NCBI GenBank assembly: GCA_965220875.1
Contig: OZ244849.1
Coordinates: forward strand, 1,466,401 to 1,530,400
Origin: Gammaproteobacteria bacterium
Lineage (GTDB): Bacteria > Pseudomonadota > Gammaproteobacteria > UBA4575
Direction: 5' to 3'
DNA: 64,000 nucleotides
Shown: piece by piece, positions 24,730 through 45,423 of the stretch
How positions within the stretch are numbered: the first letter of the stretch is position 1
Layout of the letters: the number at the start of each line of letters is the position of its first letter
Notes under the pieces: model-generated
Seen by the model: the letters and a program-made list of their open reading frames with translations, nothing else
What the model was told of the DNA's origin: nothing
Databases searched by the model: none
Translations under genes and position numbers: made by a program

Positions 24730-24731
24730 CA

Positions 24732-25855: not shown

Positions 25856-28800
25856 GCTGACGATAACAACCCCAGGTTTCCTAACTCTACCTTCCTGCAG
25901 TTCAGTTTGTCCAAGGATGTAATTCGCCACATTCCCCAGTCTGATTCAGTCCCCGAGACACTATGATGGCGCAGAAAAAGGTCTATCCTCTTGTCACCAC
26001 TGCCGCTCATTTTCTGCACTCTGAAGTACGGTGTCTCTGCGTGCTCAGGTGCAAATTTATTCATATCTTTAAATATACTCATATCCTCGCAATACACCAT
26101 ATCATTGATGCATAGATCCAATTCGTAATACCACCCTTCCAACTCAGAAGGCGGCTCTTTTACTATGACCGGTTTTCCTGCACTGGCACGCTTAGCGGCC
26201 TCCAGCATTGTTATAATCTGAAATCGCCTTTCTTTGTTAGTACCCTCCTGTCCATTATGAAAGATGATCATGTGATGATTGCTGCCGGACAGGACATATG
26301 AGTTGCCTGTCTTGATATAAGATTTTGTCATCGGTCGCGCAATACGAGCTTTCAGGATAGGGGTAGAGGGATTACCTCTTTTGTCAAGCACACGAGGTGG
26401 TGTCTTATCTAGTTTCGCTTTAATTGTGCTGGATTTTTCTCCTACTAGATTATTTATTTCCAACCAGTAGAAAAGGGCATCATGAATAGATTTCTCAACT
26501 ACCCATGTACCAGTCCCTGGTGTCCAATTCCTGGAAAGTTTGGACAGGTACTCAGCTGTCAATTCCTTGCGGCAAGTCACACAAGGTGTCTGATAGATAA
26601 TTTTTGTCAGCTCTTTTCCTTTCCAACGGGGCAATGTGCGGTCAGTTGGCTTAAGTTTTTTTACTTCCGCAGCCCAATGTAACAGGACTGAGCGCAGGTC
26701 CTCATCCAGAATACAACTGCCGCCATCCCCATCTGGTTCAGCTTGTGCAATTTGCTGCACTTTTTTTAGAATATTTGACCTCATGCTCTCAATGTTCAGG
26801 CACTGGTCAAAGTACGATTTTCCATAATTAGTCTCTTCGTGCAAAGCGCCCCAGACTTTGCGTTTGATCATGTGGGATACGACAGTGGTATTCAACCGAT
26901 TACTCAAAAGACTGTGCAAGTCATGACTATCCTCCCAGCTTGTAGACAATCTCAAACGATTCTTCTTGATCCAGTCTTCTTTGGTAGTTCGATGCGGCAA
27001 AAACTTCTTATCCTGTTCCTTTTTATGGGCTTCAATCATTGACTTCAGCATGGCCCGGTCAGTAATGGCCACCACAAACGCATCCACTGCGTGATGACGA
27101 TGGTCGTGTCTCGATTTCTCAGACTTTTCTGCTTTGTCCGCACTATATTGCAAAATTTCACCTGTCTCTGTATCAATCTCTTTACCTGTTTCTATATAGA
27201 CACCAGAATCAGGTTTCCGAGGCAAAACGGAGTTCAATCCCAGTCTCCGACGAAGCTCACTTGTAGCTGCACCGTTATTAACGTCGATTGGTACTCCATA
27301 TTTTTCCAACATCTTTTTTGAAGCTGTAGCAATGTACCGGGTATCATTGAGTTGTCTATTTACGAAATCACTTTCACTTTCCGGGCAATGTGCCTTTTTA
27401 AGGAGATTGTTTCGCTTGCGGAGATTCTGATCCTTGCCAAATTTTTCCTTGGCGAACTTCTCTATATGCTGCCATCGATTCTCATTATGTCCCCAAGCTT
27501 CATAAGGTGTTTGCTTTCCTTTTTCATCATTACAACTGCGGCAACTGACAAGCGTATTCATGTAATTCTGTCTGAAACCTGTGTACGGAAGGATATGCTC
27601 AACTTCTGCTCCACCAGAAAACAGTTGACCGATACCGATCAACTTCTGGCAGTAAGGGCATTGCTCATCCTGCTCTTTCCACATCTTGTATTTTGATCGG
27701 TCATCAGGACTGATACGGCAGGCGACACCTCCTCGCACTCCCTCCAGGTTGATCCCGATACTGCCTGTTTTGTAGTGTTTCAGAATTTCCTCTTCCGCAT
27801 CCTCGTTTCGTTTCCTGTTCTGATTTTGCTGGCTTGCAATCTCAGCACGGTGCCTTTTTGAAGATTTCATCTCCCGCGCCATCTCAATACGGATAATGGC
27901 TGGCTTGCCATAATGCTTCACAATTGCATTCACTACGCGACGTATTTCATAGAGCGCTTTCTGCACGGTCGGGTTCGCTATATTCGGGACATCCTCAATT
28001 TTCAACAGGTACCCTTCGTTAGTCGCTTTCTGTATCTTAGTAATGCTTTCAATTTGTCCAATTTGTTTTACTGCTGCATAAAGGTCCATACCATCACGCA
28101 GATGAGGGAGTAATTCGTTGATAGCCTTAAGACTGTACTTACTATAGCCATCTTCCAACTGTTCGTTCACGGCAAGTCCCAAAGCACCCTTTTCATGGTC
28201 ACGATTAGGAAGATAGGAAGGAAACTTCCAATACTTAACAAGTCTGTCATACAACGTTTTTTTATTGTGCATTGTATGCAGATCTTCAACTAATTTAGTC
28301 TGCTTTTCCTTACCTAATTGCTGCCACGCTCGAATACCAATTGAATGGCTGACGGCTTGAGCCGTTCGATTCCCGATGAGGCCATTTTTCCCTGCACCGT
28401 CATCACGACTCTCGCCATAATTTAGATCCTTGACCTTCACATCTAGCGCCCTAGCAACTTCTTTCCACGAGATACGCCCTTGCCTGTTTAATCTCTCTGG
28501 ATCGTCAGCTAAGTTCGTCAACTGCTCTCGCTGCTCTGCAGTTAACGGTTTTTCACCGATCTGTATATTGTTGATGACCTGAAGGGTCCGGAATTCCTGG
28601 AATTCCAGCCGCATCACAGTTGTGCGTTTCTTTTTTGGATAGATGCTGCAGTTACCTACCGTACTCTTTTGCAATTGAAGCGGGCGTTGATCGAAAATTG
28701 CATCTTTTATCCTAGTAGATTCGTCCTCAGAAAAATGTTGAAAAGAATGTTGCTTTTCCCATATAGCATCAAATTCCCTTTCATACATTTCGCGACTGGC

Positions 28801-29595
28801 ACGAAATTCCAATTTTTCAATAACAGTTTCACCTTTATGGGGTTTGGACCTTTCAAACTGAAACAGCGTGATGCGATGAGGTGGTATTTGCTTATCCTGC
28901 GATGCCTGCCAAATAAACTGGCCAAGGGTACGGTTGCCAAGCTTTTGATCTAACTCGTCAATCGCTGCTAAAACAAGACCTGTTTCTCTTTTCTCCTCCC
29001 CACTCAGGGTGTCCTGATCATCTTTAGGCGTTATGAGGTTCAAGGACTTAATCAGTTCAACATACTTTGCGCCCCGATTGCTGAAATACCCACGTCTGCG
29101 TTGCAAATGCAGTAGCAATCTACCAAACTCGTGAGGCTCCAGTTCTTCTACCAAAGAAAAATTTCGCATGGCATAAGGAGAGCAGTACGCTTTGTCAGTA
29201 ACAGACCATGCCTTGGACCAGGGTTTGCCAAGCTTGCGTTCGGCATATCTTCGGTCGATTTTATTAAGCGCTTTTTCCGGATTTACTTGGTAGTCCTGAG
29301 GTAGCAAACCTTTATTTAGAAGTATGCTTACAAGTTTTTTACGACGTTCTTTGTAATATGCTCGACGGTTGCGGGCACCATGTGCCTCACGGCGTTTTTG
29401 ATTTTTTGGGACCCGTGTTTTGGCCTCCAGCATCTCCAAAAATATGCGAGAGTTCAAAGCGCGCAATGAAACCGGCTGATAGCCGGCATAAATTCCTTGA
29501 TGGTTGCCTTCCTCTAGCTTGCAATCTACAACTGCCCATCCAATAGAACTGGAACCCACATCTAGGCCAAGAATGTAGGAATCTTTGTTTTGCAT
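25852..29595 (-). CDS. cas9: Cas9 (type II-C-like, 1247 aa)
   Basis: RuvC-I ILGLDVGSSSIGWAVV; arginine-rich bridge helix; HNH CPYCQ...EVEHILPYTG...CRSCNDEKG; RQLNDTRYIA and HHAVDAFVVAIT RuvC motifs; no csn2 or cas4 nearby. Confidence 0.9.
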   Translation of the reverse strand: MQNKDSYILGLDVGSSSIGWAVVDCKLEEGNHQGIYAGYQPVSLRALNSRIFLEMLEAKTRVPKNQKRREAHGARNRRAYYKERRKKLVSILLNKGLLPQDYQVNPEKALNKIDRRYAERKLGKPWSKAWSVTDKAYCSPYAMRNFSLVEELEPHEFGRLLLHLQRRRGYFSNRGAKYVELIKSLNLITPKDDQDTLSGEEKRETGLVLAAIDELDQKLGNRTLGQFIWQASQDKQIPPHRITLFQFERSKPHKGETVIEKLEFRASREMYEREFDAIWEKQHSFQHFSEDESTRIKDAIFDQRPLQLQKSTVGNCSIYPKKKRTTVMRLEFQEFRTLQVINNIQIGEKPLTAEQREQLTNLADDPERLNRQGRISWKEVARALDVKVKDLNYGESRDDGAGKNGLIGNRTAQAVSHSIGIRAWQQLGKEKQTKLVEDLHTMHNKKTLYDRLVKYWKFPSYLPNRDHEKGALGLAVNEQLEDGYSKYSLKAINELLPHLRDGMDLYAAVKQIGQIESITKIQKATNEGYLLKIEDVPNIANPTVQKALYEIRRVVNAIVKHYGKPAIIRIEMAREMKSSKRHRAEIASQQNQNRKRNEDAEEEILKHYKTGSIGINLEGVRGGVACRISPDDRSKYKMWKEQDEQCPYCQKLIGIGQLFSGGAEVEHILPYTGFRQNYMNTLVSCRSCNDEKGKQTPYEAWGHNENRWQHIEKFAKEKFGKDQNLRKRNNLLKKAHCPESESDFVNRQLNDTRYIATASKKMLEKYGVPIDVNNGAATSELRRRLGLNSVLPRKPDSGVYIETGKEIDTETGEILQYSADKAEKSEKSRHDHRHHAVDAFVVAITDRAMLKSMIEAHKKEQDKKFLPHRTTKEDWIKKNRLRLSTSWEDSHDLHSLLSNRLNTTVVSHMIKRKVWGALHEETNYGKSYFDQCLNIESMRSNILKKVQQIAQAEPDGDGGSCILDEDLRSVLLHWAAEVKKLKPTDRTLPRWKGKELTKIIYQTPCVTCRKELTAEYLSKLSRNWTPGTGTWVVEKSIHDALFYWLEINNLVGEKSSTIKAKLDKTPPRVLDKRGNPSTPILKARIARPMTKSYIKTGNSYVLSGSNHHMIIFHNGQEGTNKERRFQIITMLEAAKRASAGKPVIVKEPPSELEGWYYELDLCINDMVYCEDMSIFKDMNKFAPEHAETPYFRVQKMSGSGDKRIDLFLRHHSVSGTESDWGMWRITSLDKLNCRKVELGNLGLLSSA

Positions 29596-29624
29596 TTTTT
29601 GAATTTAGGTACTAATATGTGGGG

Positions 29625-29732
29625 TACTAAATAGTGTATCTGAACTAAGCCTGCTCGTTTTTTACAACAAAATTCTAGCAGGATATGTCTTTTATGACTA
29701 AACCTTAACGCCTCTCAATGGGGCGTTTTTAG
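29625..29732 (+). ncRNA. Candidate tracrRNA (anti-repeat + intrinsic terminator), divergent from cas9
   Basis: 29633-29668 AGTGTATCTGAACTAAGCCTGCTCGTTTTTTACAAC is complementary over about 30 of 36 positions (including G-U pairs) to the CRISPR repeat; hairpin CGCCTC-TCAAT-GGGGCG followed by TTTTT at 29709-29730. Confidence 0.6.
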
Positions 29733-30979
29733 TTTTAGGCAACTTGAATTTTAGAGGCCACCCTTTTTGGTACCGCATTGAGTACGAATCTGGCGGACTA
29801 TGCAGCCTTCAATGCCACATAATTACTGGACGTGATTATCCCCTGAAAACAAGTACAACTGTATTATGTGATTTTGCGATCATCCGAGGATAGCCGATGA
29901 CAGCGAGTTTCGCACCTACTTCTGTATTGAACAAGTACTGTGATTTGTGGGTCACTTGTAATCCTGCGCGTGGTGAGTAAGTCTATACTCAGTATGGGTG
30001 TTATGAGCATGATTCCCTGTTCATGCAAGCCCTAGGTAAAAAGGCACCCGAAAATACATTTTCATTCCTTGGGATACAGGCCATCGCTACTGGATAGTAG
30101 AGGCCAAGTCTACCTATCGTAGCTTTTCTCTAAGCCTTGGGAGAGGCACAAGACTACTCTGACAAAGTGAATCAACTTGGAGTTGGGCTCAGCAAGATTT
30201 GCCACTGAAATTGCAGGCACGATCAGTCTTTTTATGTAACTATTGCTTATTGGAATGGTAAAGAATGGCTTGAAGTTGCCATCAATAATTACGAAACCAC
30301 AGGCTTTCATACTCTAGACCAGTGCCTGAACATTCTGGACAGGAACAGCAACATTCTACCTCTTTTCGATGATGAGCCAGACAGGTTCTTGCGTAATGTA
30401 AACGCTATAAATCAGACCTTGCATGACAATGAAGTGCCAGCAAGAACAGGGCAAGCGTTATGGCAGCTCTATTGCTAGCAGTAGTGCAAGACGGGAAATT
30501 TACGTATCCATGCTAAGCTTAAGATTACTAATTCCGTAGTCAAATCAGGTGTACAGGCAGCTTGAATTGTCAGCCACTCTGCTGCTTGTATTGATCACTT
30601 CCTTACCGTCTTGGGCTGAAACTCTAAGGGATTTGCCCGAGTTAATACTCGTCTGATACGGCGGAAAATACTGGACTGTACATGTCCTGAGAGGACAGTA
30701 GTGGCTATCGCACCCAGACTGGCAAACGCCCTATTGCATCAACACAGAAGGCTGTTGCCATTGCTTCAGACCGAAATGATGAACGGGGCTCTTATTTCTT
30801 TTGATCACCTAGCAGGACTCACCGCTAAAGGTGGTGAATATGTGCGGAATCCTAAGAGCTTGCTTTGGTCTAAAGCGTTGCGAGAACTGAGAGATCAAGG
30901 CATTAGTAGTAACGACAGCAACGTTGATTGAGTATATCCCTGTCTTGATTTCTAAACTCTTAGACGTCAAATAAAAATT

Positions 30980-31432
30980 TTGGAACCTTTAGATATAATC
31001 CCCTTTGAAAACAACAAAGGAGTAACAAAAATAATGATAGCTAACTGGAAAAATGTACTGCTGCGAAAAATGGTTTTGCAGATATGCTCAATTTACGGAG
31101 ACGGCCATGCGTTCCTTGGTGAGAGCTTCTGTGAAGATGAGTTCGGAATGGTGAAGTCACAGACAGGCAGGGAGGGGATAGACGGGTATATTCGGCATTT
31201 GGCAGTTCAGGTAAAGCTTAAGTGGGTTACTCAAGAAAACCTGTCCAGTCGGTATGTCACCATAAAACCTGATGCGGGCTTTGACGTATTGATTGTCTGT
31301 AAAAACGGCGCCGAGGGCGATGTAGAGTTGTTTGGTGCATGGGAAAAGCAACAAGTAGAAGCTGTCAGAAAGCCTAATACCAACAGGATAAACCTCAAGG
31401 ACCTCGCACAGCTTAATTGCTTTCAGTTATAG
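30980..31432 (+). CDS. Hypothetical protein, PD-(D/E)xK-like (paralog of 40957-41376)
   Basis: 150 aa; GESFCEDEFGMVKSQTG...DGYIRHLAVQVKLKW...DVLIVCKNG motif block shared with the 40957 ORF. Confidence 0.5.
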   Translation: MEPLDIIPFENNKGVTKIMIANWKNVLLRKMVLQICSIYGDGHAFLGESFCEDEFGMVKSQTGREGIDGYIRHLAVQVKLKWVTQENLSSRYVTIKPDAGFDVLIVCKNGAEGDVELFGAWEKQQVEAVRKPNTNRINLKDLAQLNCFQL

Positions 31433-31471
31433 GATTCGCCATGAAAGATAATTCATATCCTCTGTACATTG

Positions 31472-31798
31472 CTAAGCGTCGCTTTGATGCGTTATTTGAG
31501 GCAATGGTCGTCCGAGGCCGGTCACCAGATCGTCGAAAATCGAACCCGGCTGTTCGCGACGGTTGTAGCGGTAGTTGAACTCTTTCATGTGCTTCCAAAG
31601 GTGCTGCTTCGAAACGTGTACATGCGTCCCCCGAATTGAAAACTTTAAACGCGACCAGAAAGTTTCAATCGAATTAACATGAACATCACTCCTTGCAATA
31701 CATGCATGGTTAAGTGGTGATAGGTGTTCTGAGCTGTACTGTAGCGGTTTGTCCGATGACGATGAAATCACCGCCGAGTATTGCCGGACCATGCACAC
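31472..31798 (-). pseudogene. IS1595-family transposase C-terminal fragment
   Basis: HVNSIETFWSRLKFSIRGTHVHVSK...YRYNRR matches the transposase C-terminus; the N-terminal half is missing where high-GC DNA begins. Confidence 0.7.
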
Positions 31799-31969
31799 AA
31801 TGGACAGGGCCTGTGTGCTAGTCTAAATCTGGTTGTTTATCCATTGAGGTTTGACAGGTGAGACCGTAGACTTTGTCATGACTTGCTCGCATGCCAGCCT
31901 GTGTAGAAGGTTATCGCGTTCATGCATCTGGCACGAGCTACATCATCCCAGTACTTTTCGGGAAAGCCG

Positions 31970-33151
31970 ATGCTGACATTTACAGAGGAACTCTTGCTCA
32001 TGCTGGGGGATGAGGAGGGCCTGTTTCTTCCCGTCAAGGAACATGCCTTTGAATGTGCACTGGCCGGTGCCATCCTGATGGATCTTGCCTTCGCATTTCG
32101 TATTGACACAGACCTGCAGGCACTCGTGGTCACCGACCCCACCCCTACGGGCAATCCCATGCTCGATTATGTGCTGGCAAAGATTGTTGCCCGCACGGAC
32201 ATTACAGACACCCCGACCTGGATCCGGGTCTTGGCCACCGAGGATGCCGCAGTGATTCGTGAGCAGGCCCTGGATGGCCTAGTGGGGCACCGCATCCTGA
32301 AAAGGCAGCACAACCGCTTTCTGGGGGTGTTTCGCTCCACCTGCTATCCCACCCTGGATGACCGGCCCGTGCAGGCGATCAAGTCACGCATCGAGGCAGT
32401 CGTCTCCGATGACATTCCGGACCCGCGGGACGTGGCCCTGATCTCCCTGGTGGACGCCTGCCAGATTCTCCCTGACCTGTTTCCCAAGTGGGAGGCGGAA
32501 CGCACCAACTCCCGGCTTGATCTGTTGCGCAGGATGGACCTGATCGGTCGCGAGCTCACCGGCACCATCACCGAAATCCAGAGCCGGATCATCCGTGCGG
32601 CACGCGCCCAGGCAGAACGCTTCAGGAAGACCCTACTAAGCCTGGCTGCGGTGGGCAGCGCGGCCACGATCGCAACCCTGCTGGTGCCGAGTATCGGGGT
32701 TCCGGACCGCTGGGGTCCTTCGCTCCCCGGGCTGCTCTGGTTCGACGGGTTCTGGAAGCAGTTCAGCGGCTACCTGCTGCTTGCACTCAGCATGGCCGGG
32801 CTGACAGTCGCGGTCACAATCAAGAAGCAGCTGCTGGCCTGGGTCTCGGGTTCACATCGCTGGAGGCTTTCCCACATCGTACTCGGCCTCGGCTGTGTAT
32901 TCATCCTCTTCATGCACACGGGATTTCGCCTGGGCAGCAATCTGAATGCCGCGCTGATGGGCAGTTACCTCACCGTGCTGCTGTCGGGCACGCTGGTCGG
33001 CGTGGTGGTCGGGGCAGCGCCGCGACTCAAGCAGATGGGCCTGCACAGGATCGGCCCGGCCCGGCGCACCCTGCTTTGGGTCCATGCCCTGGCGACTTGC
33101 CTGCTGCCGGCCCTGCTCATCGTTCACGTACTGTCCGTGTATCTCTACTAG
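31970..33151 (+). CDS. GPP34/GOLPH3-like domain protein with C-terminal multi-TM domain
   Basis: MLTFTEELLLMLGDEEG N-terminus resembles GPP34-family proteins; 4-5 C-terminal TM helices; about 65% GC. Confidence 0.5.
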   Translation: MLTFTEELLLMLGDEEGLFLPVKEHAFECALAGAILMDLAFAFRIDTDLQALVVTDPTPTGNPMLDYVLAKIVARTDITDTPTWIRVLATEDAAVIREQALDGLVGHRILKRQHNRFLGVFRSTCYPTLDDRPVQAIKSRIEAVVSDDIPDPRDVALISLVDACQILPDLFPKWEAERTNSRLDLLRRMDLIGRELTGTITEIQSRIIRAARAQAERFRKTLLSLAAVGSAATIATLLVPSIGVPDRWGPSLPGLLWFDGFWKQFSGYLLLALSMAGLTVAVTIKKQLLAWVSGSHRWRLSHIVLGLGCVFILFMHTGFRLGSNLNAALMGSYLTVLLSGTLVGVVVGAAPRLKQMGLHRIGPARRTLLWVHALATCLLPALLIVHVLSVYLY

Positions 33152-33161
33152 GAAGCATCGC

Positions 33162-34634
33162 ATGGTTCGCAGGCTCATGCAGGCTGTGCTGGTGATGACC
33201 CTGCTGGGTGCCGCGTACGTGATCGTGACGATGACTATCGCCGGAGACCGGCGCCTGCTGCTGAGCGGCCAGACCACCGGTGCCCACCACCAGCTGGAGA
33301 TGGCTTGCGAGACCTGTCATGGCAACTCCGCATTCGCCGGCGAGCAGGCTGCAGTAAAGGTGCTGAACCGGAATTGCAGGAAGTGCCACGAGGATGAACT
33401 GAAGGTGGCCAAGGACAGCCACTCGCGCAAGCGCTTTCGCAACCCGCGCATGGCGGAGTACTGGGGTATTCTCGATGCGCGGCGTTGCACTACCTGTCAT
33501 ATCGAGCACCGCCCGGAGATCACGCGAGCCAGTGCAGTCACGGTCCCGATGGACTTTTGCGTGGCCTGCCACTCGCAAGGCGAGCAGGACATCCGAACGA
33601 CCCGCGCCAGTCATGCCGGGCTGGACTTTGCCACCTGCGCATCGGCAGGTTGTCACAACTTCCACGACAACCGTGCACTCTTCGAGGACTTCCTGCTTGC
33701 TCATGCCGGCCAGTCCGAGCCTGAACGACCCGTTGTGCATGGGTTGTCTGCACGTTACTTAGCCCGGCCAGTGTCGGTCGACGAGGCCCTGGGACGAGGG
33801 GATGCCATTGCACCGCCTGCAGCACTTGCCGAACCGGGCGCACTGGATCACTGGGTGGATTCCGGCCATGCTCAGGCCGGGATCAACTGCACGAGCTGTC
33901 ATGTGCCCAAGCCTGTCAGGGATGCGCTGAACGTCGAGGCGTTGACACACTGGATCGATGTGCCGGAGACGGGGGTGTGCATGGAGTGCCACAAGCCGCA
34001 GGCTCGTACGTTTGTCCGGGGGCGCCACGGCATGCGCCAGCATCCCCGCATCGCAAAACCCAGGGATGCGGGCCGGGGGCTCACCCGGGTCGTACCTGCA
34101 TGGATGAGTCGCTGGCTCAACGACCCGGCCCTGCCCGTTGTGATGACCGTGGGTGAGGCGCGCCTGCCGATGCGCGCCGATGCAGACCCCTCCACGACAC
34201 TCAATTGCAGTACCTGTCACCGCGCACATGCCCTCGATACGGTACGTGCAGCGGCGGAGGCCTGTGCCTCCTGTCACGATGATGCGCATACTCGCAACTA
34301 TTTTGAAAGCCCACACTATGTGCTGTGGCAGCTGGAGCAGGTAGGCGGGGCACCGCCCGGTAGTGGTGTCAGTTGTGCAAGCTGTCACATGCCGAAGCTC
34401 GAACACCGCAGGCAGGTGCTTACCACCCACAACCAGAATGACAACCTGCGGCCCAACGAAAAAATGATACGGTCAGTTTGCCTGGACTGTCACAGCCTCG
34501 GCTTCTCACTGAATGCACTTGCCGATGTCGAACTCATCCGGCAGAACTTTACAGGCAAACCCAAGGTCCACGTACAAAGCATCGACTGGGCCATTGCACG
34601 CAGCCTGTCAAAGCCCGGTACGCCGGAGGACTGA
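33162..34634 (+). CDS. Multiheme cytochrome c (at least 10 CxxCH motifs)
   Basis: CETCH, CRKCH, CTTCH, CVACH, CTSCH, CMECH, CSTCH, CASCH x2, CLDCH plus CASAGCH; N-terminal TM anchor; RBS GGAAG upstream. Confidence 0.8.
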   Translation: MVRRLMQAVLVMTLLGAAYVIVTMTIAGDRRLLLSGQTTGAHHQLEMACETCHGNSAFAGEQAAVKVLNRNCRKCHEDELKVAKDSHSRKRFRNPRMAEYWGILDARRCTTCHIEHRPEITRASAVTVPMDFCVACHSQGEQDIRTTRASHAGLDFATCASAGCHNFHDNRALFEDFLLAHAGQSEPERPVVHGLSARYLARPVSVDEALGRGDAIAPPAALAEPGALDHWVDSGHAQAGINCTSCHVPKPVRDALNVEALTHWIDVPETGVCMECHKPQARTFVRGRHGMRQHPRIAKPRDAGRGLTRVVPAWMSRWLNDPALPVVMTVGEARLPMRADADPSTTLNCSTCHRAHALDTVRAAAEACASCHDDAHTRNYFESPHYVLWQLEQVGGAPPGSGVSCASCHMPKLEHRRQVLTTHNQNDNLRPNEKMIRSVCLDCHSLGFSLNALADVELIRQNFTGKPKVHVQSIDWAIARSLSKPGTPED

Positions 34635-34767
34635 TGGATGGTCGTACTCTGTGCGCTATTTGAAATTGCACGGCAATTTCAGTAATAATGTATCTTCAGT
34701 AGCAGACAGGGAATGGTAGATCACGAAGAAAATTGCAGCGCTGGCCGGGTTTTTATGGGGGATTGGT

Positions 34768-35286
34768 GTGGCTATGACAGCTGTTGCAGCCTCCGAAGGC
34801 ATACCCTACGCGAAGGTCGCCGACATGCTCTACCAGGTGATGTCGGCCAACCGCGAGGTCTACACCCGTGTCGTGGTCCAGCGTCTTACCGTGGATGAGA
34901 AAATCCTGACTGCATCGGAGCACTTCGAGGATGATGCAGCTCTGCCCCTGCCGTCACAGATGTTTCGATTTGTGGCCGAGGAAGTGTTGGACAACACGGA
35001 AGACTTCTCCTATTCACTGCTGTCCCTGCACCCGATTAACAAGAAAAACGGGCCTGCCACGGAGTTGGAGCGACAGGGGCTTGAACATGTTGCCAATGCA
35101 CCAGGAGAAAACTTTTACGGCGAAGAGGAACTCGGTGGTGAGCGCTATTTCAGTGCTGTGTATCCTGATTATGCGGTCGTTGAAGCTTGTGTCCAGTGCC
35201 ACAACAACCACAAGGATTCCCCGCGCAAGGATCTCAGCGAAGGTGAAGTCATGGGGGGTGTAGTCATTCGTATTCCTATGGACTGA
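34768..35286 (+). CDS. DUF3365-like c-type heme protein (CVQCHNNH)
   Basis: Single C-terminal CxxCH; the frame stays open upstream to 34720 encoding a signal-peptide-like KKIAALAGFLWGIGVAMTAVAA without an ATG, so the true start is uncertain. Confidence 0.55.
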   Translation: MAMTAVAASEGIPYAKVADMLYQVMSANREVYTRVVVQRLTVDEKILTASEHFEDDAALPLPSQMFRFVAEEVLDNTEDFSYSLLSLHPINKKNGPATELERQGLEHVANAPGENFYGEEELGGERYFSAVYPDYAVVEACVQCHNNHKDSPRKDLSEGEVMGGVVIRIPMD

Positions 35287-35545
35287 CGGGTATATCTGAT
35301 TAGTCTGTAATAATCCACAGGACTCATCGGAGTCTCACACTCCCTCTAGAACTGCAGTGACCGCTGGGATCAATATAAGTACACACCAGCCAGCAAGTAA
35401 CAGTCTGCGGCCCACCGAGTCATCTAGGCTTACACGAAACACTACCAGACAATCTTCCGCAGCCGAAATTCCAATGAAACATGTGGTCGCCCTGCCCTAA
35501 AGACGTTCGCAGGCTCATTGCCAAGCCAGTCGAGGCAACTCTCCC

Positions 35546-38500
35546 ATGAGGAGGTTTCCAGCAGTCCGACATTATTGCTGTAAAACACACTTTTTTGAGG
35601 TGTATACCTGGAAGGGTTTGTGTGTCCTGACGGTTCTTGGCCTAGCTACCCTGTCCATGGCCGGTAGCGATGCCTTTGCGGCTGCCGTGTGCAGCAACAC
35701 ACCTGGCGCAGGGAATCATATTCAATGTGAAGAACCAGCAACATCGACCAGCGATATAGATATTGATGCGGTGGGTGTCGATATCGACTTGACTGGGAGT
35801 GGCGTCTCCACTGCGGGGGTGCAAGCTGTGCATACAGGCAGCGGGGATGTGGATATCAGCATCAGCGGTGCGACAACCAACATGATGACCACTCCATCAA
35901 TGATCGACACGACAGGAAGCAATACTTTCGGTGTCCGTGGCACGCTGGTCGGCGAAGGCACCCTCACTTTCTCACTGGAAGATACCGAAATCCGAACACA
36001 GGGTACTGGCTCCATAGGACTGGGGGCCCGGCATATGGGCAACGGCCATCTCAAAGTGGACTTGAGGAACGGTGTCGTGATCGATACCCAGGGAGGCGGC
36101 AGCGCAATCGGTGTCAGGATGGTGCAGCAGAATACCGCTGCAAACCAAATGAACGACGTCACCTTTCTGGCCGAGGAAATTTCCGTTACTACTGCAGGGA
36201 GCCGAGGGTACGGCCTTTTTGCCACTCGAGAGGGCGGTCCCGGCAATATCCACATGACGGTCAGGGACAGTACGGTCATGACCCAAGGTAACATGGGGTT
36301 AGGCGTATTTGGCCAGCATTCCGGTACAGGCGACACAACGATCACCCTGGTCTGTACGGACTCCCCTGCAGTTCGCTGTGAGATCACGACCCCGGGGACC
36401 CAGGGACACGGCGTGCAAAGCTGGCATCATGCTAGCTCCAGCGGCGACATCCGGATCAAGGTACAGGGCAACTACGACATCCGAGCGGGGAGCACAGCTA
36501 CCAACAACGCCTACGGCATATACGGGCTGCATCAGGGTACCGGAAATATCGATATCGACCTGCAGGGCGGTGCCATCACCACCACCGGGGCTTCTTCCCA
36601 CGGCATTCATGGGTGAAAATTCACAGGAGCCCGGGGCAATGTCGACATCGACGTGCAGGGTGGTTCCATCACCACGGCAGGAACAGCTGCCCACGGCGCC
36701 TATGGGGCGCACCAGGGTACCGGAAATATCGATATCGACCTGCAGGGCGGTGCCATCACCACGGCAGGAACCACTTCCTACGGCGTCTACGGCTTGCATA
36801 CTGGATCCGGCAACATCAACCTCGCTACGGAAGGCGGTCATGGAGTTACCACACAAGGCTCCAATGGGCACGGCATCGTGGCCCTTCATTTGGGGAGAGC
36901 GACATCGGGACGCAATATCGACATCACGGTGGGCAGTCCGACCCGGCTGGGTGGTTTTATCAGGACAAGCGGCACAGGTGCCCGGGGTGTGCATGTAGGT
37001 GGCCTCAGCAATGGCGCACCGATCCGCGTGGCGGCCCGCGGTGCCGATGGCTTTTTGCAGCAGACGGTGCGGGTCAACCGGTCGATCACCAGCGCGGCCG
37101 AGGGGGTGTACCTGGCCGGGGGCGGCAAGGTCATCATCGGCCCTTCGGGCAGCATCGACTCGGACCTGGACATCGCCATCCTGGCCACCGGCACGGTCCC
37201 GGAAGATACCAGTGACATGAACAACGTGATCCCGGCTATCCCGCCCAAGCTGAGGGTGGACCTGAACCCCAGCGGGCAGCGCATGACAGGAGAGGACGGC
37301 TGGCTGGCCCAGGCCCTGGGCGGGGGCTGGATTCTCAACGAAGGTGGCGAGACCACGATTGCGGTCCACAATGTGGTGCTGCATGAGGGGGCGACGGGCG
37401 TCGTCCCCGGTGCGGTGGCCCGCAACGGTGCCTGGAACGTCACGATGCTGTCGGATGGGGTGACGGTGGCCCGCAGCACGGACCCGTTCACCGCCAGCAT
37501 GCGCACCGCAAATGTCTTCGCCGATCGCGATTTCTCTGAAGATGACTTCATGGAGCAGGTGCTCGCCTGCCTGGCAGGCCAGACCGGAACGCCCCCCAAC
37601 TGCATGGACCCTGATCCAGAACCCGATCCTGATCCTGAACCCGAACCAGAGCCCATGCCAGAACCCGATCCTGATCCTGAACCCGATCCTGATCCTGAAC
37701 CCGAACCAGAGCCCATGCCAGAACCCGATCCTGATCCTGAACCCGATCCTGATCCTGAACCCGAACCAGAGCCCATGCCAGAACCCGATCCTGATCCTGA
37801 ACCCGAACCAGAGCCTTCTGGCTCGGTGCTGATGGAGGACTATGCACCCCGTGCCGCCCTCTACGAGGCCCTGCCGAGCTTCCTGCTCGGCCTGCATACC
37901 GACCGCTGGCCGGGCCACCCCCCCTCGGCACCTGTCTGGATGGCCCTGTCAGGGACTACAGGAGACCAGGACTTTGATAACTCTACCGTAGACGTAGAGT
38001 TCGATACCGAACACCAGGTTTTTCAACTGGGGACTACCTTTGTACAGGACCCGCACTGGACCCTGCAGGCCACCCTGCACCATGTATCCGGTTCTGCGGA
38101 TGTCTCTTCTCCCGTACAGGGCGGAGACATTGATGCCGAAGGCCAAGGGATATCCCTTGCAACCCAATGGACCCGTGGTGGAGGTACCTATGCGAGGGGG
38201 AGGGTCGCCTGGACTGAATATGAGCTGGACATTGACTCCGAGGAAGTCGGGCGTCTGGTCTCTTCGCTGGATGCCGAGCGTCTTGCGATACAGCTTGAGG
38301 CTGGCCATCGGATGCCTTGGGGCGCCCGGGTTCACTGGACCCCGCATATCCGTCTTTCGCATACCCAAGTATCCATTGACCGCTTTACCGACCGTGTCGG
38401 GGCTCGGGTATCCTTTTCGGATGAGGAGCGTTCCAGTGCAGCCCTTGGCATCATGACCGATACCACGCGAAGTGCAGGGGGCGGTGAGCTTTCAATACGG

Positions 38501-38722
38501 GGGGCACTGCACCTGAAACATTACATCAGTGGTACGGACACCACCGCAAAGGTCTCCGGGATGAACCTTCGAGCCCGCACGCAGGACAATGAGGTGCTGC
38601 TGGACCTGGGGGCCAGGTGGCAGAAGGATCCGTGGATACTGGATGCAGCACTGTCTGTCCAGGAGGCAGGTTCCGGGAATCATGCGTACTCAGGTTCAAT
38701 CCATATCGGGATGCAGTTCTAG
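35546..38722 (+). pseudogene. Autotransporter (type Va) with repetitive passenger, interrupted by an in-frame TGA at 36614-36616
   Basis: Signal peptide; [18 protein letters not shown]-type passenger repeats continue in the same frame across the TGA; C-terminal beta-barrel ending ...IHIGMQF. Confidence 0.7.
37609..37815 (+). repeat. Three perfect 60-bp tandem repeats (37621-37800) encoding a [14 protein letters not shown] linker
   Basis: Sequence lines 37621, 37681 and 37741 are identical 60-mers. Confidence 0.95.
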
Positions 38723-39079
38723 GGGAAGTAGAATCCCAGTGACCCGTGAGGGTGGGCGGGGCCTGGATGCCGATCTCTTCGCTTTGTAATCGTAAGTTAT
38801 CTAACCTCAAGACCATCCTCCGATGATTCCAAACACCTACTACAGACCCATGTCTCATTGGAGAATACTGAAACTTGAAGCGCTTGTGCAGGCATGTTAG
38901 GGGAACTACATATGTGGCACACAATATGCCAGTCTACGCATAGATCCTGACATGGCAACGAAGCACGATAACCAAGTGGGGAGCCATCAAGGGTCGGCCT
39001 TCAGTAACGGGGCAGCTGGACGTGGAGGTGGCGACGTCAGTCGGCCTGTGAAGAGTCAAATGGATACCAAGTATATAGT

Positions 39080-39566
39080 TACCAGAAAACCCGCTGGATG
39101 GTGATGTAGAAGCGGATGAAACCTATATCGGAGGCAAGGCTTCTGGTGGCAAGCGTGGAGCGGTGCTCCCAACAAGTCTATCGCTTTCGGAATGCTGGAC
39201 CGGGATGGGGATGTAATGACCGAGGTTGTCCCGAATGTTAAGAAGAACACCCTTCAACCGATTATTGCTGCTAACGTCAAAAAGGGCAGCACGGTGCATA
39301 CTGATGAGCTTCGCTCCTATAAGGGACTGGACAAGGCTGGGTATGAGCGCAAGCGAGTTAACCACGGAACCGGGCAACACGTGAAAGACGATTGCCACGT
39401 CAACAGCATTGAAGGCTTTTGGGCCAGGTTGAAACTGTCTATTCGCGGTACACATATCCATGTCTCTAAGAAGTGCCTTCGGAAGTATCTGAAGGAGTTT
39501 GAGTTTCGCTACAACTATCGGAACAAGCCTGAGCAGATGTTTCCTGACTTGCTTTCTTCCCTATAG
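39080..39566 (+). pseudogene. IS1595-family transposase remnant (frameshifted, lacking the N-terminal third)
   Basis: EADETYIGGK motif at about 39100 then frameshift; ORF 39192-39566 carries HVNSIEGFWARLKLSIRGTHIHVSK; closely related to the 31472 fragment. Confidence 0.75.
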
Positions 39567-39911
39567 CAGCAGCTTCCAGTGCTGGCAGGGAACGTCCATC
39601 TGATACAGATGGATGTTCCCTGCAGAAACGCGCCAGCAAGCCAAATCGGCGTGCTTCTTCCAGACTGATAATATTTACCAACTGACATTGTTATCGTTCC
39701 TCTATTGCTTGCATTTTATACTTCACACATGTAATACTTTGTATGATCTCTTCATACTTCACAAGTAACTCGTTAACGGTCTAGCTTGGGTCCGCATTGA
39801 GGAGATCACTCTTCATATAAGTACTCTCATTTTAAGGCTCTGGGATTGAGCCTTTCTTTTTGGATTTACATACAATCAAAATCATCCATATCACACTCAG
39901 TAAATAAGATT

Positions 39912-40583
39912 TCATTTATCAACTCTAGATAATTTACGGGCAGCATCTAAATCCCCTCTCATTACATATCGCCTTAAGTTATTTAGATAGTTGTACCATT
40001 GAATAAGATCATCTCGATTCTTTGGGCAATTAGGTATTTGAATATCAAAATCTAGTAAAGCACTCTCCAAGGAAGCAATTTGCTTCATAAAATCGTGATT
40101 AAAAACAAGGCCACCAGTAAGCATCGAATCAGCCATATCAAGAGTTTCTTCTACTAAAAATTCGATATCAACATCACTAAATTTGGTTTTTGGCAATGTC
40201 TTTACTATTCGACGATAAACCCAAGGAGGTGCAGTAAAAATAAACCATACGAAAAATCCTGTGACAAATATAACTAGAATTAAGGGTGTAAATGCTGCTT
40301 GAACCTCGGGAGGGTCTTGCCAGATAAAATTCCCTTCCCTAGCAGCTGCTATTGCAGTTCCGTCAACAAGCTCAGTGACTTCAATCCCTATTCGTCGCCC
40401 ATCGTCATCGGTAGCTTCACAATCAGGTGGATCGTTACCTTGTCCTCGCAACTTGAACGAATGAAAGGGCATCTTCCCTAGCCTTTCAAGTTCCTCGTTG
40501 AATGTCAGGATCACGCCGATTTCGTTTTCCTCCTTCTTATTTGACAAAGCAAAGTAGGACGCATGCCGTCGTATACCATCCAA
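39912..40583 (-). CDS. Hypothetical protein with one TM segment
   Basis: 223 aa ORF; central hydrophobic LILVIFVTGFFVWFIF. Confidence 0.4.
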   Translation of the reverse strand: MDGIRRHASYFALSNKKEENEIGVILTFNEELERLGKMPFHSFKLRGQGNDPPDCEATDDDGRRIGIEVTELVDGTAIAAAREGNFIWQDPPEVQAAFTPLILVIFVTGFFVWFIFTAPPWVYRRIVKTLPKTKFSDVDIEFLVEETLDMADSMLTGGLVFNHDFMKQIASLESALLDFDIQIPNCPKNRDDLIQWYNYLNNLRRYVMRGDLDAARKLSRVDK

Positions 40584-40956
40584 AAGCTGAATGGCTCCTT
40601 GGCGCGATCACCAAGGCTTGGGTGCTGTCTATCAGGGGGATGGGATGCCGGCATCTTCAATCACCGCTCAAGGTATATACGGACAGCAGTCTCAACTGTC
40701 GACATCGTTCCTCCTCCAAGCTCGGTCTTGCTGATCCGGAATCCGCGCAGGGTACGGAGCACTATGCGCCGTGTTCTCGGTGCTGTTGATCGTGTAGGTT
40801 ATCTCTTAGCCTTCCTCGATGATTTCAGCCCTGCCGTGATTGAAATACGCGATGCGACCATCAAATGAGCCCCGCTCCGGGGGTTCGTGCAGAGGACTAC
40901 AGCTGTTAATAACGCATCAAAGCGATGCTTGACTACACTTCTCTGAACTTTAGTGT

Positions 40957-41376
40957 TCATAGTAGCGGGTAACAGGCAAACTGTTTCAGGTATTTCAACT
41001 TCACCTCGTTTGGAGGCGTGCTCTTCTTCCTGGCAGCTTCTACATGCTTTTTCTCCCAAGCACCAAACAGTTCCACATCACCTTTCTGGCCATCGATACA
41101 GACAATCAATAAGTCATAGTCCGCATCGGGTTTTATAGTGACATACCTGTCGTCTTTGTTTTTACTGTAGTGCCACTTGAACTTAACCTGAACGGCCAAG
41201 TCTCCAATGTGCCCATCTACATCCTTCTTGCCTTGTGCAGTTCTCACCATGCCAAACCTGTCTTCACAAAAACTCTCACCAAGAAACTCGTACACGCCAT
41301 CATAACGGGAAGGCATAGAACCCAATATCTGCAAAAGAACCTTGCGTACCCACGCGTTTTGCCAGCTGGCAATCAC
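40957..41376 (-). CDS. Hypothetical protein, PD-(D/E)xK-like (paralog of 30980-31432)
   Basis: Shared GESFCEDRFGMV...DGHIGDLAVQVKFKW...DLLIVCIDG motifs. Confidence 0.5.
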   Translation of the reverse strand: MIASWQNAWVRKVLLQILGSMPSRYDGVYEFLGESFCEDRFGMVRTAQGKKDVDGHIGDLAVQVKFKWHYSKNKDDRYVTIKPDADYDLLIVCIDGQKGDVELFGAWEKKHVEAARKKSTPPNEVKLKYLKQFACYPLL

Positions 41377-41741
41377 TTTTTGTCCTTCGCCTTGGTGTGC
41401 TCGGTTTTCACACCTGTAATGGGCAAGCCTGCAATGACGCCCCCCGTGAATCCGCCTGGAATTACGATCACACCATTTCCCTCCAGCCCTATATGGCGTG
41501 AGAGACCGTCTTTCCCGTAGTGATGACTGGTAATCTGCAAGTCGCCTTCAATGCGAATCCCGTGTTGATTAATGTGTTCTATTTTCTCATCAAGACCGGC
41601 AATTCGCTTCTTGTACCTGTGCCCTAACATCAAGATGCCTAGCACAGCACCAGCCCCAAGACATGCAGCCCAAACAAGGTGCAATACCCAGTGCTCGATG
41701 AAACCCTGTACCAGCCAAGTGATCGTTGCTTCGATTACCAT
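41373..41741 (-). CDS. Small membrane-anchored protein, translationally coupled to 40957-41376
   Basis: 122 aa; N-terminal TM helices; stop overlaps the downstream start. Confidence 0.4.
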   Translation of the reverse strand: MVIEATITWLVQGFIEHWVLHLVWAACLGAGAVLGILMLGHRYKKRIAGLDEKIEHINQHGIRIEGDLQITSHHYGKDGLSRHIGLEGNGVIVIPGGFTGGVIAGLPITGVKTEHTKAKDKK

Positions 41742-41917
41742 TGAAATATACTAGTCTAGTCACGTACAGTGTCAACGGAAATAACGCGATATAATCCCCC
41801 AAATTTTCAAACCAGAAGCACATTTGAATTTATGAACCTGTTCCTTGATGAGGTCGCAGATCGCACGTTTTTTGAGCAAGGTCGCTGGGGAGGCAAGCGA
41901 GTAAAAGGGAAGATTGA

Positions 41918-42850: not shown

Positions 42851-43782
42851 TAGCTTATCAACTCCCTGTACATCAACCGCTTGCCCACCATACCCGCTGC
42901 CACATTCTGCATCTGTTCCATGGTGTCGGATTCCCGAACGTTGTAGCGTCCTGAAAATTCATCGACATACCTGTCCAAGTGCTTCTCGCTCATGTGGTGG
43001 TACGTGCCGTGTAACCACACTTGAGTAAAGCCCAGAATGACTCGATGCCATTGGTGTGAGCCTGATCCTTGACGTACTGGCTGACTGAATGCTTGACGGT
43101 TTCATGCCTGTGAGGGATGCCCTGATAGCACTTGTGTTCATCGGTGTAGACGATGCTGTCAGGCTCGACACGGCTGTTAACGAAGTTATGCAAAGTCTGC
43201 TTGTCCGTGCTGGTGATCTTTGAAGCACTGACCTTACGGGTAGCACGATCCCCACTACAATGGACTTGCTGACTCCACTCATCCAGCTTTCAGCTTTTTG
43301 CCGGAATGCTTGTTGCGCTCTTTGCCACCCATGTAGGTCTCGTCAATCTCCACAGACCCTATGAAAGCATCCAGTCCGGTATCGCCCCAAGCCTTGTGCA
43401 ATCTATGCAGCATGAAACAAGCCGTCCTTTGCGTGACTTTCAGGTCACGATGCAGTTTCGTGCCGCTAACGCCCTTGAAGTTGGTTACATGCAGATACAG
43501 GGCAAAAGCCCACTTGCGAAGTGGCAGCCGTGAACTTTGCAGGGTGGTTCCAGTGCGAACGCTGAAGTAGTTATAATAATCATTACAGAAGTAGGGCATG
43601 GTCTTGTGCTCGGCTTCCACTGTCTTGGTACTGCCACAGCGACCACAGCATCGTTCTTGTGGCCAGTAAATGCTCTCGAACCATTTAATGGCAGATTCCT
43701 CATCGGGAAATATCTCTCCCAACTCAAGTAAGGAAATGCCCTCTCTGTGTGATTTTCCGGGTGCTTTCTTCTTTGTTTTCAT
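42851..43782 (-). pseudogene. IS1595-family transposase, frameshifted
   Basis: N-terminus MKTKKKAPG...CGRCGSTKT zinc ribbon...EIDETYMGGK; C-terminus continues in another frame (HTNGIESFWALLK ... HGTYHHMSEKHLDRYVDEFSGRYN). Confidence 0.75.
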
Positions 43783-43919
43783 ATCGAGTACGTGACACCG
43801 AACGTCAGCAGTAAACCTGATAGGTCTTCCATGCCAGGGCTTCTGTGGTTTGTGTTGTAGCGAAATTAATGTCCAATAAACTGGACTAAAGTTTCTAACA
43901 TTATTTACATATCGCAGCC

Positions 43920-44123
43920 ATGAAACTACAGGAATATCTTGAAGAGGCCGGGGTTTCAATCTCCAGGTTTGCTGAAAAGGTTGGCATCTCACGTCAGCTC
44001 GTGCACAAGTGGCTGAGAGGCAAAGAACCTCTGCTGCGTTATGCGCTGATTGTTGAGGATTTGACCGACGGCAAGGTCGACTGCAGGTCCTGGGGCAAGC
44101 CATCCGAAGAGCAAAATCTCTAA
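43920..44123 (+). CDS. Small HTH DNA-binding protein (Cro/YdaS-like)
   Basis: VSISRFAEKVGISRQLVHKWLRG helix-turn-helix. Confidence 0.5.
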   Translation: MKLQEYLEEAGVSISRFAEKVGISRQLVHKWLRGKEPLLRYALIVEDLTDGKVDCRSWGKPSEEQNL

Positions 44124-44149
44124 TTTTCCAGAATTTCCCACGCCTCGCA

Positions 44150-44521: not shown

Positions 44522-44705
44522 AAATATGGGTGTACTTACCAGAAGAAATACATCTGGAGGAATTTTCCAAGCAGGATGTAACATATGAAATTACTTTGGC
44601 TAACAGGTTGAAGCATCTGGCCGGGGCTGCGCCCGTCCCGGGTGACCCCGGTATTCGCCTTGGGCAAAATCTTTCTAGCTCTCTCGAAGCAAGTATGGGA
44701 AATGT

Positions 44706-45328: not shown

Positions 45329-45423
45329 GCGTACTATTCTACCCTGTTAAGTATGTCAAAGGGAACAACGCGAAACTAAAAGAAGTGTAATGACTTGAAC
45401 CAAAGCAAGGAATTAAACAAACC

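Follow-up and report, generated by a model that had tools for sequence, protein, structure and literature searches.

Results

Organization of the locus

The window (the whole stretch of DNA analysed here, 64,000 nucleotides of contig OZ244849.1 from a gammaproteobacterium) contains a high-GC block of about 7 kb with genes for a GPP34-like membrane protein, a multihaem cytochrome c, a Tll0287-like protein and an autotransporter (Table 1). On each side of this block is a fragment of an IS1595-family transposase. The two fragments are on opposite strands, and the 5'-truncated ends of both face the block (31.9-38.7 kb), giving a mirror orientation. Beyond each fragment are passenger genes and a single outer repeat. 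The left element (tIS-L) extends from 29831 to ~31700 and the right element (tIS-R) from 39085 to 41788, tIS standing for transporter IS.

Table 1. Features of the block and the two flanking elements, in window coordinates. L numbers designate loci used for comparison.
Feature	Coordinates	Strand	Remarks
tIS-L outer terminal inverted-repeat-like end	29831..29859	+	CGTGATTATCCCCTGAAAACAAGTACAAC; 4/19 mismatches to consensus, degenerate -35 box
Passenger gene X, 132 aa	31034..31432	+	Possible nuclease-like motif; family n=9 in 5.8 billion proteins
Left transposase stump C	31472..31700	-	IS1595 homology ~31514-31690 only, residues ~227-285 of ~285
Native upstream region of GPP34-like gene	31705..31921	+	Aligns with L012 8516-8805; from ~31844 also with L011 and L013
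GPP34-like/membrane protein	31922-33151	+	Pfam
Multihaem cytochrome c	33084-34634	+	Pfam
Tll0287-like protein	34768-35286	+	Pfam
Autotransporter 3'-end vestige	35339..35356		Orientation as in L011/L013; left arm of 18-nt inverted repeat with 38712-38729
Autotransporter gene	35546..38722	+	Pfam PF03797; one in-frame TGA at 36614; inverted relative to L011/L013
340-bp spacer, autotransporter terminator to right stump	38745..39084		Similar only to same-species contigs L001, L002
Right transposase stump R	39085..39566	+	Residues 126-285; one frameshift near 39140-39165
Z', frameshifted copy of small ORF Z	39466..39688	-	65% identity to L004 Z
Passenger gene Y, 223 aa	39912..40583	-	No family match; identical in L001-L003
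Passenger gene X', 139 aa	40957..41376	-	56% identical to X
Small membrane protein passenger gene, 122 aa	41373..41741	-	Position corresponds to the 172-aa membrane protein in the L004 element
tIS-R outer terminal inverted repeat	41770..41788	-	CGCGTTATTTCCGTTGACA; built-in -35 box; 29 nt before ATG of 122-aa ORF

Both junctions recur in independent metagenome contigs with 99.8-99.95% identity. One contig (L091) corresponds to 30210-32276 of the window, and two others, L001 and L002, reach 38763 and 38781. These two contigs are from the same species as the window (99.8% identity). The species is also contained in the KELL22 metagenome samples and in SRR33343647. We considered their ends as a possible structural variant and dropped the idea as mere fragmentation; L091 ends within a gene.

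Two divergent transposase stumps

The open reading frame at 31472-31798 (minus strand) matches Pfam family PF12762 (DDE_Tnp_IS1595) at positions 103-153 of 153 (E 3.5e-11), and that at 39192-39566 (plus strand) matches positions 44-153 (E 4.1e-32). The zinc ribbon PF12760, found in window copies A, B and D and in a full-length transposase from another genome (L004), is absent from both stumps, which are truncated at residues ~227 (left) and 126 (right). The matches, the strands and the block-facing truncated ends bear out the original prediction that the fragments are 5'-truncated, mutually inverted pieces of IS1595-family transposases.

The right stump begins at ENPLDGDVEADETY, the first catalytic Asp. 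It is 79% identical to the L004 transposase gene in nucleotide sequence and 81-82% in amino acid sequence, and the homology stops exactly at 39085. The left stump is 62.5% identical to residues 230-285 of the L004 transposase, has lost its original stop, leaving a 13-aa tail, and meets native DNA at ~31690-31710. The N-terminal third of the 31472-31798 frame runs antisense to native sequence in front of the GPP34-like gene, a region common to L012, so this frame is not transposase over its whole length, as had been assumed. A weak tblastn alignment had extended the transposase homology to ~31894, and was dropped because 31705-31800 aligns with the native DNA of L012. The left element has no Z gene.

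The two stumps share only their last 56-65 residues, at 58-63% amino acid identity. At the nucleotide level, blastn with a word size of 11 gave no match between them at E<1e-5, and a word size of 7 gave 71.9% identity over 89 nt. The right stump is much nearer to the full-length L004 transposase than to the left stump. The C-terminal halves had been described as near-identical, and a lack of nucleotide relatedness had been named as evidence against the proposed IS-driven assembly; the relatedness that we find is weak. Judged by their ~60% amino acid identity, the stumps are from different IS1595 lineages.

Passenger genes and outer ends

Of its two repeats, each window element has only the outer one, on the passenger side (29831-29849 in tIS-L, 41770-41788 in tIS-R); the one beside the transposase is deleted. 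With the inner ends gone, neither element has a readable target duplication of its own. The 19-nt consensus for the left end, CGCGATTATCCCCTTGACA, was built from ~20 related elements, and we estimate the chance expectation for such matches in the window at ~0.17. In layout, the tIS-R outer repeat matches the one at 9391-9419 of L004. How far tIS-L reaches outward is less certain than for tIS-R, as the tIS-L repeat is degenerate and the 1.2 kb between that repeat and X contains no clear gene. The two outer repeats differ, and their outer flanks, TTACTGGA (29823-29830) and ATATAATC (41789-41796), show no target-site duplication around 29831-41788.

X and X' are homologous and inverted relative to each other (31111-31372 versus 41287-41026, 72.7% nucleotide match). 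The X of L004 is nearest to the left X, and the L004 transposase to the right stump. X contains the motif LGESFCED..VDG..QVKFKW, and a fold search gave weak, merely suggestive matches to NhoI/Eco15I nucleases (E 0.02). A scan of JGI metagenome data with the X-family alignment gave no relatives, and PADLOC, Pfam and NCBIfam gave no match for X, Y or Z. The 3' half of Z' is antisense to the 3' end of the transposase gene.

IS1595 loci and GC transitions

There are five further IS1595-family loci in the window: A (11539-12426), B (22189-23095), D (43737-42853), E (44703-45280) and G (58822-59718). The expectation of more copies therefore held, and the family is unusually dense in this region, with seven loci from several lineages in 53 kb. 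No pair among the seven exceeds ~72% nucleotide identity, and thus no locus is a recent copy of another. It had also been proposed that IS1595 copies mark every GC transition. They do so at four places (near 10.9-11.5, 14.0, 31.7 and 38.7-39.1 kb), but there is no IS1595 sequence within ~1 kb of five others (~46.4, 49.4, 50, 51.8 and 61.9 kb). As a separate observation, an IS1595 element with a methyltransferase-nuclease fusion has split cas2 of a type II-C CRISPR-Cas locus.

A resident operon between variable flanks

The GPP34-like/cytochrome/Tll0287-like trio is present in essentially all of the 80 loci fetched, from Alpha- and Gammaproteobacteria. From 31922 to 35286 it is 86-88% identical in nucleotide sequence to loci L011 and L013 of sister genomes (for L011, 86% over 31900-34642 and 88% over 34670-35292), and no IS1595 matches were found in L011-L016. 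Exact-sequence look-ups for Cas9 and for the Tll0287-like and GPP34-like proteins gave no match. The GC content of the same genes is 0.62-0.66 in L011 and L020, compared with 0.59-0.60 for the window block and 0.44-0.46 for the two tISs.

In L011, a gene at 8042-8633 lies ~100 bp from the GPP34-like gene. It corresponds to window positions 20442-21033 with 88% identity, a value like that of the block itself (86-88%), and the window has ~10.7 kb extra (~21034-31700) at that spot. We read this difference as an island in the window; the left neighbours in other relatives differ, so no outgroup fixes insertion here versus deletion in L011.

Judged by its orthology and synteny with IS-free sister loci, the block at 31.7-38.7 kb is resident and not the cargo that the original prediction took it for: L011 and L013 have it in the orthologous place, at 79-88% nucleotide identity. 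In these related genomes no IS sequences accompany the block, a finding that goes largely against the proposed IS-driven assembly. The low-GC flanks appear to be the variable, acquired parts, with a CRISPR-Cas/methylase island on the left and an X'/Y/IS-rich island on the right, because the block in L011, without an IS, directly adjoins a gene that the window has 10.7 kb further to the left.

Next to the right stump, the autotransporter gene aligns with L011 16198-13179 on the opposite strand (79% nucleotide identity). The vestige of its 3' end includes a 13-nt exact match to L013, CTCTAGAACTGCA, at the same relative position, and the inverted segment of 3.4 kb, 35357-38711, is bounded by the 18-nt inverted repeat. 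Among all fetched loci, the spacer between this gene and the right stump has no similarity beyond L001 and L002.

Intact relatives

The L004 element, at 9391-11433, is bounded by inverted repeats of 29 nt that are 83% complementary, with a duplication of 8 bp, TAGTCTTT. Its repeats enclose a membrane protein gene, X, Z and a gene for a transposase of 285 aa, which has a score of 237 bits against NCBIfam NF033547. Repeats of this type, with perfect 8-bp duplications but differing passenger genes, were also seen in at least nine other relatives from metagenomes. Two terminal inverted repeats were found in L004, tIS-A and tIS-B, and tIS-B has the 8-bp target duplication TCTTTTTT. X, Z and the outer repeat are common to L004 and the window elements and are in the same order, which places the passenger genes between the IS ends.

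Z is a protein of ~73 aa that begins MSRGKYLSLEEARKKGxLDRFCKEHPS. No inverted repeats or duplications were found immediately around the transposase and Z genes. A domesticated, non-IS gene pair was considered for this unit and rejected when the second repeat turned up beyond the passenger genes. X homologues adjoin IS1595 sequence in four of seven contexts. The idea that X is merely a preferred target for IS insertion was rejected, since X in L004 sits within the repeats and duplication.

An intact member of this group is 1.7-2.8 kb long, with terminal inverted repeats of ~25-29 nt and an inward-facing promoter in each. The transposase would be driven from one repeat and the passenger operon from the other, and insertion produces an 8-bp target duplication. 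The passenger operon ends in the conserved small ORF Z, convergent with the transposase gene and overlapping its 3' end. There is some possibility that these elements form an apparently unannotated subgroup of IS1595 tISs in which Z is a fixed junction for passenger swaps, a promoter is carried in the repeat, and the operon is translationally coupled to Z.

Discussion

We think it likely that the two stumps are the transposase-proximal remains of two different, independently acquired IS1595-family tISs that flank a resident operon. An X-carrying element lies left of the operon, and a mirror-oriented element with the membrane protein gene, X', Y and Z' lies on its right. Both have lost the transposase-side inverted repeat and the zinc-ribbon/DNA-binding N-terminus, together with part of the catalytic domain in the right element and most of it in the left. 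These losses were probably ordinary deletions that started inside the IS and ran toward the operon on either side. In the opposite direction they would have taken out passenger genes, which may have been selected against. Under this model the shared operon-facing truncation is a coincidence, explained by this putative selection only. In all relatives, the high GC would belong to the operon itself.

The geometry had suggested either a decayed composite transposon or repeated IS-mediated deletions, and deletions beside IS copies are the likeliest origin of the truncations. A decayed composite, in which two copies of one IS1595 captured and moved the block and later lost their inner ends to erosion, would account for inverted elements with their transposase ends inward, intact-looking outer repeats outward at 29831 and 41788, and homologous passengers X and X' on either side. 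However, the transposases are only ~60% and X and X' 56% identical, the outer repeats differ, and the outer flanks show no duplication. L011, L013 and L012 have an orthologous, syntenic block with no IS. The left neighbour gene of L011 is also present in the window, with the island between it and the block, and both gene (88%) and block (86-88%) are similarly identical to L011. We therefore regard a composite transposon as extremely unlikely.

The inverted autotransporter raises a different possibility, that one event (inversion or recombination of two inverted elements, or a transposase-mediated inversion from the right element) made both truncations and the present gene order. The inversion relative to L011 and L013 is beside the right stump, a 3'-end vestige remains behind the Tll0287-like gene, and an inverted repeat surrounds the 3.4 kb. 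Yet the arms of that repeat are not IS sequence, the right arm is 356 bp from the stump, and there is no IS1595 sequence at the other breakpoint. The stumps are too divergent for homologous recombination and are broken at unequal positions (residue ~227 versus 126). A single rearrangement thus seems unlikely. It is very unlikely that the stumps, or the chimeric 108-aa and 124-aa reading frames, have been domesticated to regulate the passenger operons or related intact elements. The 124-aa frame is intact, 81% identical to the L004 protein and identical in two other metagenome contigs, but those contigs are from the same species (99.8% identity) and hence uninformative about selection. The right stump is frameshifted just past the first catalytic Asp, its partner Z' also has a frameshift, and the left frame is chimeric, with an N-terminus antisense to native intergenic DNA.

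With two independently acquired tISs as the preferred reading, the locus can be compared with known systems. Tn10 and Tn5 are composite (compound) transposons. The window shares with them inverted IS-derived modules around a gene block, with terminal repeats facing outward. In contrast, the modules here come from two different ISs, no target duplication flanks the unit, the block is resident and both transposase genes are destroyed. Neither element can transpose alone, and the two would not make a working composite transposon; intact copies may lie elsewhere in the source genome.

In genomes that are small or reduced, IS pseudogenes occur where islands meet the core. The truncated, frameshifted transposases beside variable islands, within a dense IS family, show no essential difference from these. 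The arrangement is ordinary genome decay of that category.

Passenger genes are known from IS1595-family tISs such as ISNha5 (Siguier, Gagnevin & Chandler 2009, as cited in PMC11891212). L004, tIS-B and the approximately nine metagenomic relatives resemble them in having a zinc ribbon and DDE transposase (NF033547, PF12760, PF12762), terminal inverted repeats, an 8-bp duplication, and passengers unrelated to transposition between the repeats. The two window copies differ from them as one-ended, dead remnants, and the passenger set (membrane protein, X, Y, Z) differs in having no match in Pfam, NCBIfam or PADLOC.

These findings correct a plausible-looking misreading: the high-GC segment is resident, the low-GC flanks appear to be imported, and the IS fragments are dead and not transposon arms. 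They are a caution for GC-based calls of 'cargo' in this gammaproteobacterial lineage, which has mosaic genomes of roughly 2 Mb and is represented by metagenome-assembled genomes only. A well-delimited IS1595 tIS group, in which the cargo is interchangeable and a small ORF is conserved, may merit a short follow-up, as may the cas2 knock-out. If such a group exists, and if Z ties cargo expression to transposase control, or if cargoes such as the small membrane proteins and the nuclease-like X act in defence or addiction, these elements would be a modular, cargo-exchanging IS platform.

Two different transporter ISs flank the high-GC block

The transposase remnants on either side of the 31.9-38.7 kb high-GC block both match the IS1595 catalytic domain (Pfam PF12762). 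They lie on opposite strands, and each lacks its 5' part on the side toward the block, in agreement with the original prediction; neither has the zinc ribbon. The prediction also described the C-terminal halves of the remnants as near-identical. However, their amino-acid identity is 58-63% over the last 56-65 residues, standard blastn gives no match between them, and blastn with a 7-nt word gives 71.9% over 89 nt. No pair among the seven IS1595 loci of the window exceeds about 72% nucleotide identity.

Coordinates of features in the window and of the intact relative at locus L004
Feature	Position	Strand	Description
tIS-A	11467-14059		Intact; perfect 22-nt inverted repeats
A	11539-12426		IS1595 locus, intact
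tIS-B	22115-24760		30-nt inverted repeats, 8-bp duplication TCTTTTTT, frameshifted transposase
B	22189-23095		IS1595 locus, frameshifted
tIS-L	29831-~31700		Outer repeat, X, 59 transposase codons; Z lost
tIS-L outer end	29831-29849		CGTGATTATCCCCTGAAAA; more degenerate than tIS-R end
X	31034-31432		56% identical to X'
Left transposase ORF	31472-31798	-	PF12762 positions 103-153 of 153, E 3.5e-11
Three-gene cluster	31922-35286		GPP34-like domain fused to multi-pass membrane domain; multihaem cytochrome c; Tll0287-like protein
Autotransporter	35546-38722		Inverted relative to the two closest genomes (L011, L013); single in-frame TGA at 36614
tIS-R	39085-41788		Transposase residues 126-285, frameshifted Z', Y, X', membrane protein, outer repeat
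Right transposase ORF	39192-39566	+	PF12762 positions 44-153, E 4.1e-32
Z'	39466-39688	-	Frameshifted
X'	40957-41376		56% identical to X
tIS-R outer end	41788-41770	-	CGCGTTATTTCCGTTGACA; 29 nt before ATG of 122-aa membrane-protein ORF
D	43737-42853		IS1595-family, degenerate
E	44703-45280		IS1595 locus, degenerate
G	58822-59718		IS1595-family
L004 element	L004 9391-11433		2,043 bp; 29-nt inverted repeats (83% complementary), 8-bp duplication TAGTCTTT
Z	L004 10387-10611; also L094-L116		About 73 aa, MSRGKYLSLEEARKKGxLDRFCKEHPS...

The extent of each remnant was judged against the transposase of L004, a locus with an intact relative. That protein is full-length (285 aa; NCBIfam NF033547, 237 bits) and lies beside a homologue of X, the small ORF adjoining the left remnant. 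The right remnant corresponds to residues 126-285 (79% nucleotide and 81-82% amino-acid identity, one frameshift), with homology ending exactly at 39085, and the left remnant only to residues 230-285 (62.5% identity, 31681-31514). The N-terminal third of the 108-aa left ORF was rejected as transposase: 31705-31921 aligns instead with native DNA upstream of the GPP34-like gene in the related locus L012, and in L011 and L013 from about 31844. The left junction is therefore at about 31690-31710, and the two remnants have different breakpoints. Both junctions recur in metagenome contigs assembled independently from the same species and thus are not assembly artefacts.

The L004 element contains a 172-aa membrane protein, the X homologue, a 74-aa ORF (Z) and a convergent transposase, and each of its repeats carries an inward-pointing TTGACA/TATAAG promoter-like pair. 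Among 64 metagenomic relatives of the L004 transposase, conservation starts at CGCGATTATMMMCTTGACA on the transposase side, some 65 nt ahead of the transposase ATG, and exactly at the Z ATG on the passenger side. The genes beyond Z vary between elements and either overlap Z or stop 0-13 nt short of its start; the second inverted repeat lies past these variable genes, giving elements of 1.7-2.8 kb, nine of which have perfect 8-bp duplications. Transporter ISs of this format are already known from the IS1595 family (Siguier et al. 2009, summarised in PMC11891212).

Because matching outer ends are found in the window, the two fragments are the transposase-side stumps of longer elements, tIS-L and tIS-R, which are pseudogenised IS1595-family transporter ISs. 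These two different elements mirror each other on the two sides of a resident operon. Both have lost the transposase-side repeat and the N-terminal domain, and tIS-R is also frameshifted in the transposase and in Z'.

The block is resident DNA

The original prediction took the block to be cargo assembled by IS1595. When genomes were scanned with the cytochrome, 80 loci were recovered, and in essentially all of them, from Alpha- and Gammaproteobacteria, the GPP34-like, cytochrome and Tll0287-like genes occur together in conserved order. Since gene order is conserved across about 80 genomes, the cluster is probably a functional redox module. In L011, L020 and L076 the trio is split by short stretches of inserted DNA (0.9-6.6 kb), some of which carry IS1595 or methylase genes.

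The loci nearest to the block come from gammaproteobacterial metagenome-assembled genomes about 2 Mb in size. Identity to L011 (OZ244850.1) is 86% for window 31900-34642 and 88% for 34670-35292. The L011 autotransporter, 79% identical, is on the opposite strand, and L013 repeats this pattern. No IS1595 sequence was found within the 20 kb fetched for L011-L016. The GC content of the operon is 0.62-0.66 in L011 and L020; in the window it is 0.59-0.60 for the block and 0.44-0.46 for tIS-L and tIS-R. Given the orthologous IS-free loci and similar operon GC in relatives, the block is resident, orthologous DNA, not cargo, and it is the low-GC flanks that vary. In L011, a gene 88% identical to window 20442-21033 sits about 100 bp from the GPP34-like gene, so the window has about 10.7 kb extra relative to L011 (about 21034 to 31700), containing a mini CRISPR array, tIS-B, cas1, cas9 and tIS-L. 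On the right, a TbpB-like gene (52913-53830) matches L011 19827-20777, and the 14 kb between is largely unshared.

The inverted 3.4 kb with the autotransporter has an 18-nt inverted repeat on either side (35339-35356 and 38712-38729). The right arm encodes the last autotransporter codons (MQF and stop). The left arm remains from the former orientation, and a 13-nt exact trace of the autotransporter 3' end persists after the Tll0287-like gene. The inversion occurred in the lineage of the window. Neither arm is IS sequence, and between the inversion and the right stump lie 340 bp of unassigned DNA; we treat the inversion as an event separate from the truncations.

Origin of the truncated pair

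The geometry had been likened to a decayed composite transposon, which is defined by two copies of one IS, a duplication flanking the unit, and cargo foreign to the site. None of these three features is found: the ISs differ, the block is resident, and the outer 8 nt (TTACTGGA and ATATAATC) do not match, which speaks directly against the unit having moved as a whole. The descriptive part of the earlier interpretation is retained and the remainder is not. Instead, tIS-L and tIS-R appear to be separate insertions, as suggested by transposases and X genes only 56-63% identical between them, and by a right transposase far nearer that of L004 than the left one is, whereas the L004 X is nearer the left X. 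The inner end of each would subsequently have been deleted. The operon-facing loss in both may be chance, with a prior of about 1 in 4; another possibility is that such elements tolerate deletions only beyond the passenger genes, on the transposase side.

Passenger genes

Homology between X and X' is the source of an inverted 72.7% match (31111-31372 and 41287-41026). The X family is very rare: 5.8 billion proteins yielded nine members (clusters), and JGI metagenomes yielded none. Its members share an invariant motif, LGESFCED...VDG...QVKFKW, of the D...QxK type. For the AlphaFold model of X (pLDDT 70), the top PDB matches are to NhoI and Eco15I-N, two small methyl-directed nucleases, at a weak, non-significant E of 0.02.

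Z is on the passenger side throughout this group of transporter ISs. Z overlaps the transposase 3' end in antisense with its own 3' half, and the variable cargo genes upstream are translationally coupled to Z. In the part outside the transposase ORF, Z sequences differ pairwise by a mean of 0.26, 0.25 and 0.56 at the first, second and third codon positions, a pattern showing that Z is a real coding gene; codon 2 encodes serine as both TCN and AGC. All 166 clusters of the family are either unnamed or labelled 'hypothetical', and the family has no match in Pfam, NCBIfam or PADLOC. The start of Z is the start of conservation between elements, which places Z at the fixed point of cargo variation.

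IS1595 elements across the window

A tblastn scan found five IS1595 loci (A, B, D, E and G) beyond the two remnants. The predicted presence of IS1595 at every GC transition holds at about 10.9-11.5, 14.0, 31.7 and 38.7-39.1 kb, but not at 46.4, 49.4, 50, 51.8 and 61.9 kb. The 295-aa transposase of tIS-A is overlapped by a 535-aa N6/N4 methyltransferase-Mrr-like fusion. A 67%-GC integrative conjugative element (ICE) ends about 490 bp away from tIS-A, its TraG_N gene terminating at 10980. The absence of a target duplication around tIS-A is compatible with rearrangement at the ICE edge.

tIS-B, with a 545-aa methyltransferase/restriction-nuclease-like fusion as passenger, disrupts cas2 of a type II-C CRISPR-Cas locus (21775-29595). 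Deleting tIS-B and one duplication copy restores a 99-aa Cas2 ORF. The CRISPR array at this locus is short, with just 2-3 repeats of 36-37 nt at a period of 66. At 42853-45372, the degenerate copies D (-) and E (+) are arranged back to back with about 1 kb between them, and the right inverted repeat of E is still recognisable (45354-45372). An ORF at 43279-44319 is the N-terminal part of D with a fused N-terminal extension, which has a 77% nucleotide match to an HNH-endonuclease gene region (16112-16519).

The IS1595 family has clearly been active in this region and has shaped it, although not by assembling the high-GC block as cargo. The remnants of tIS-L and tIS-R are ordinary IS decay at borders between island and core.
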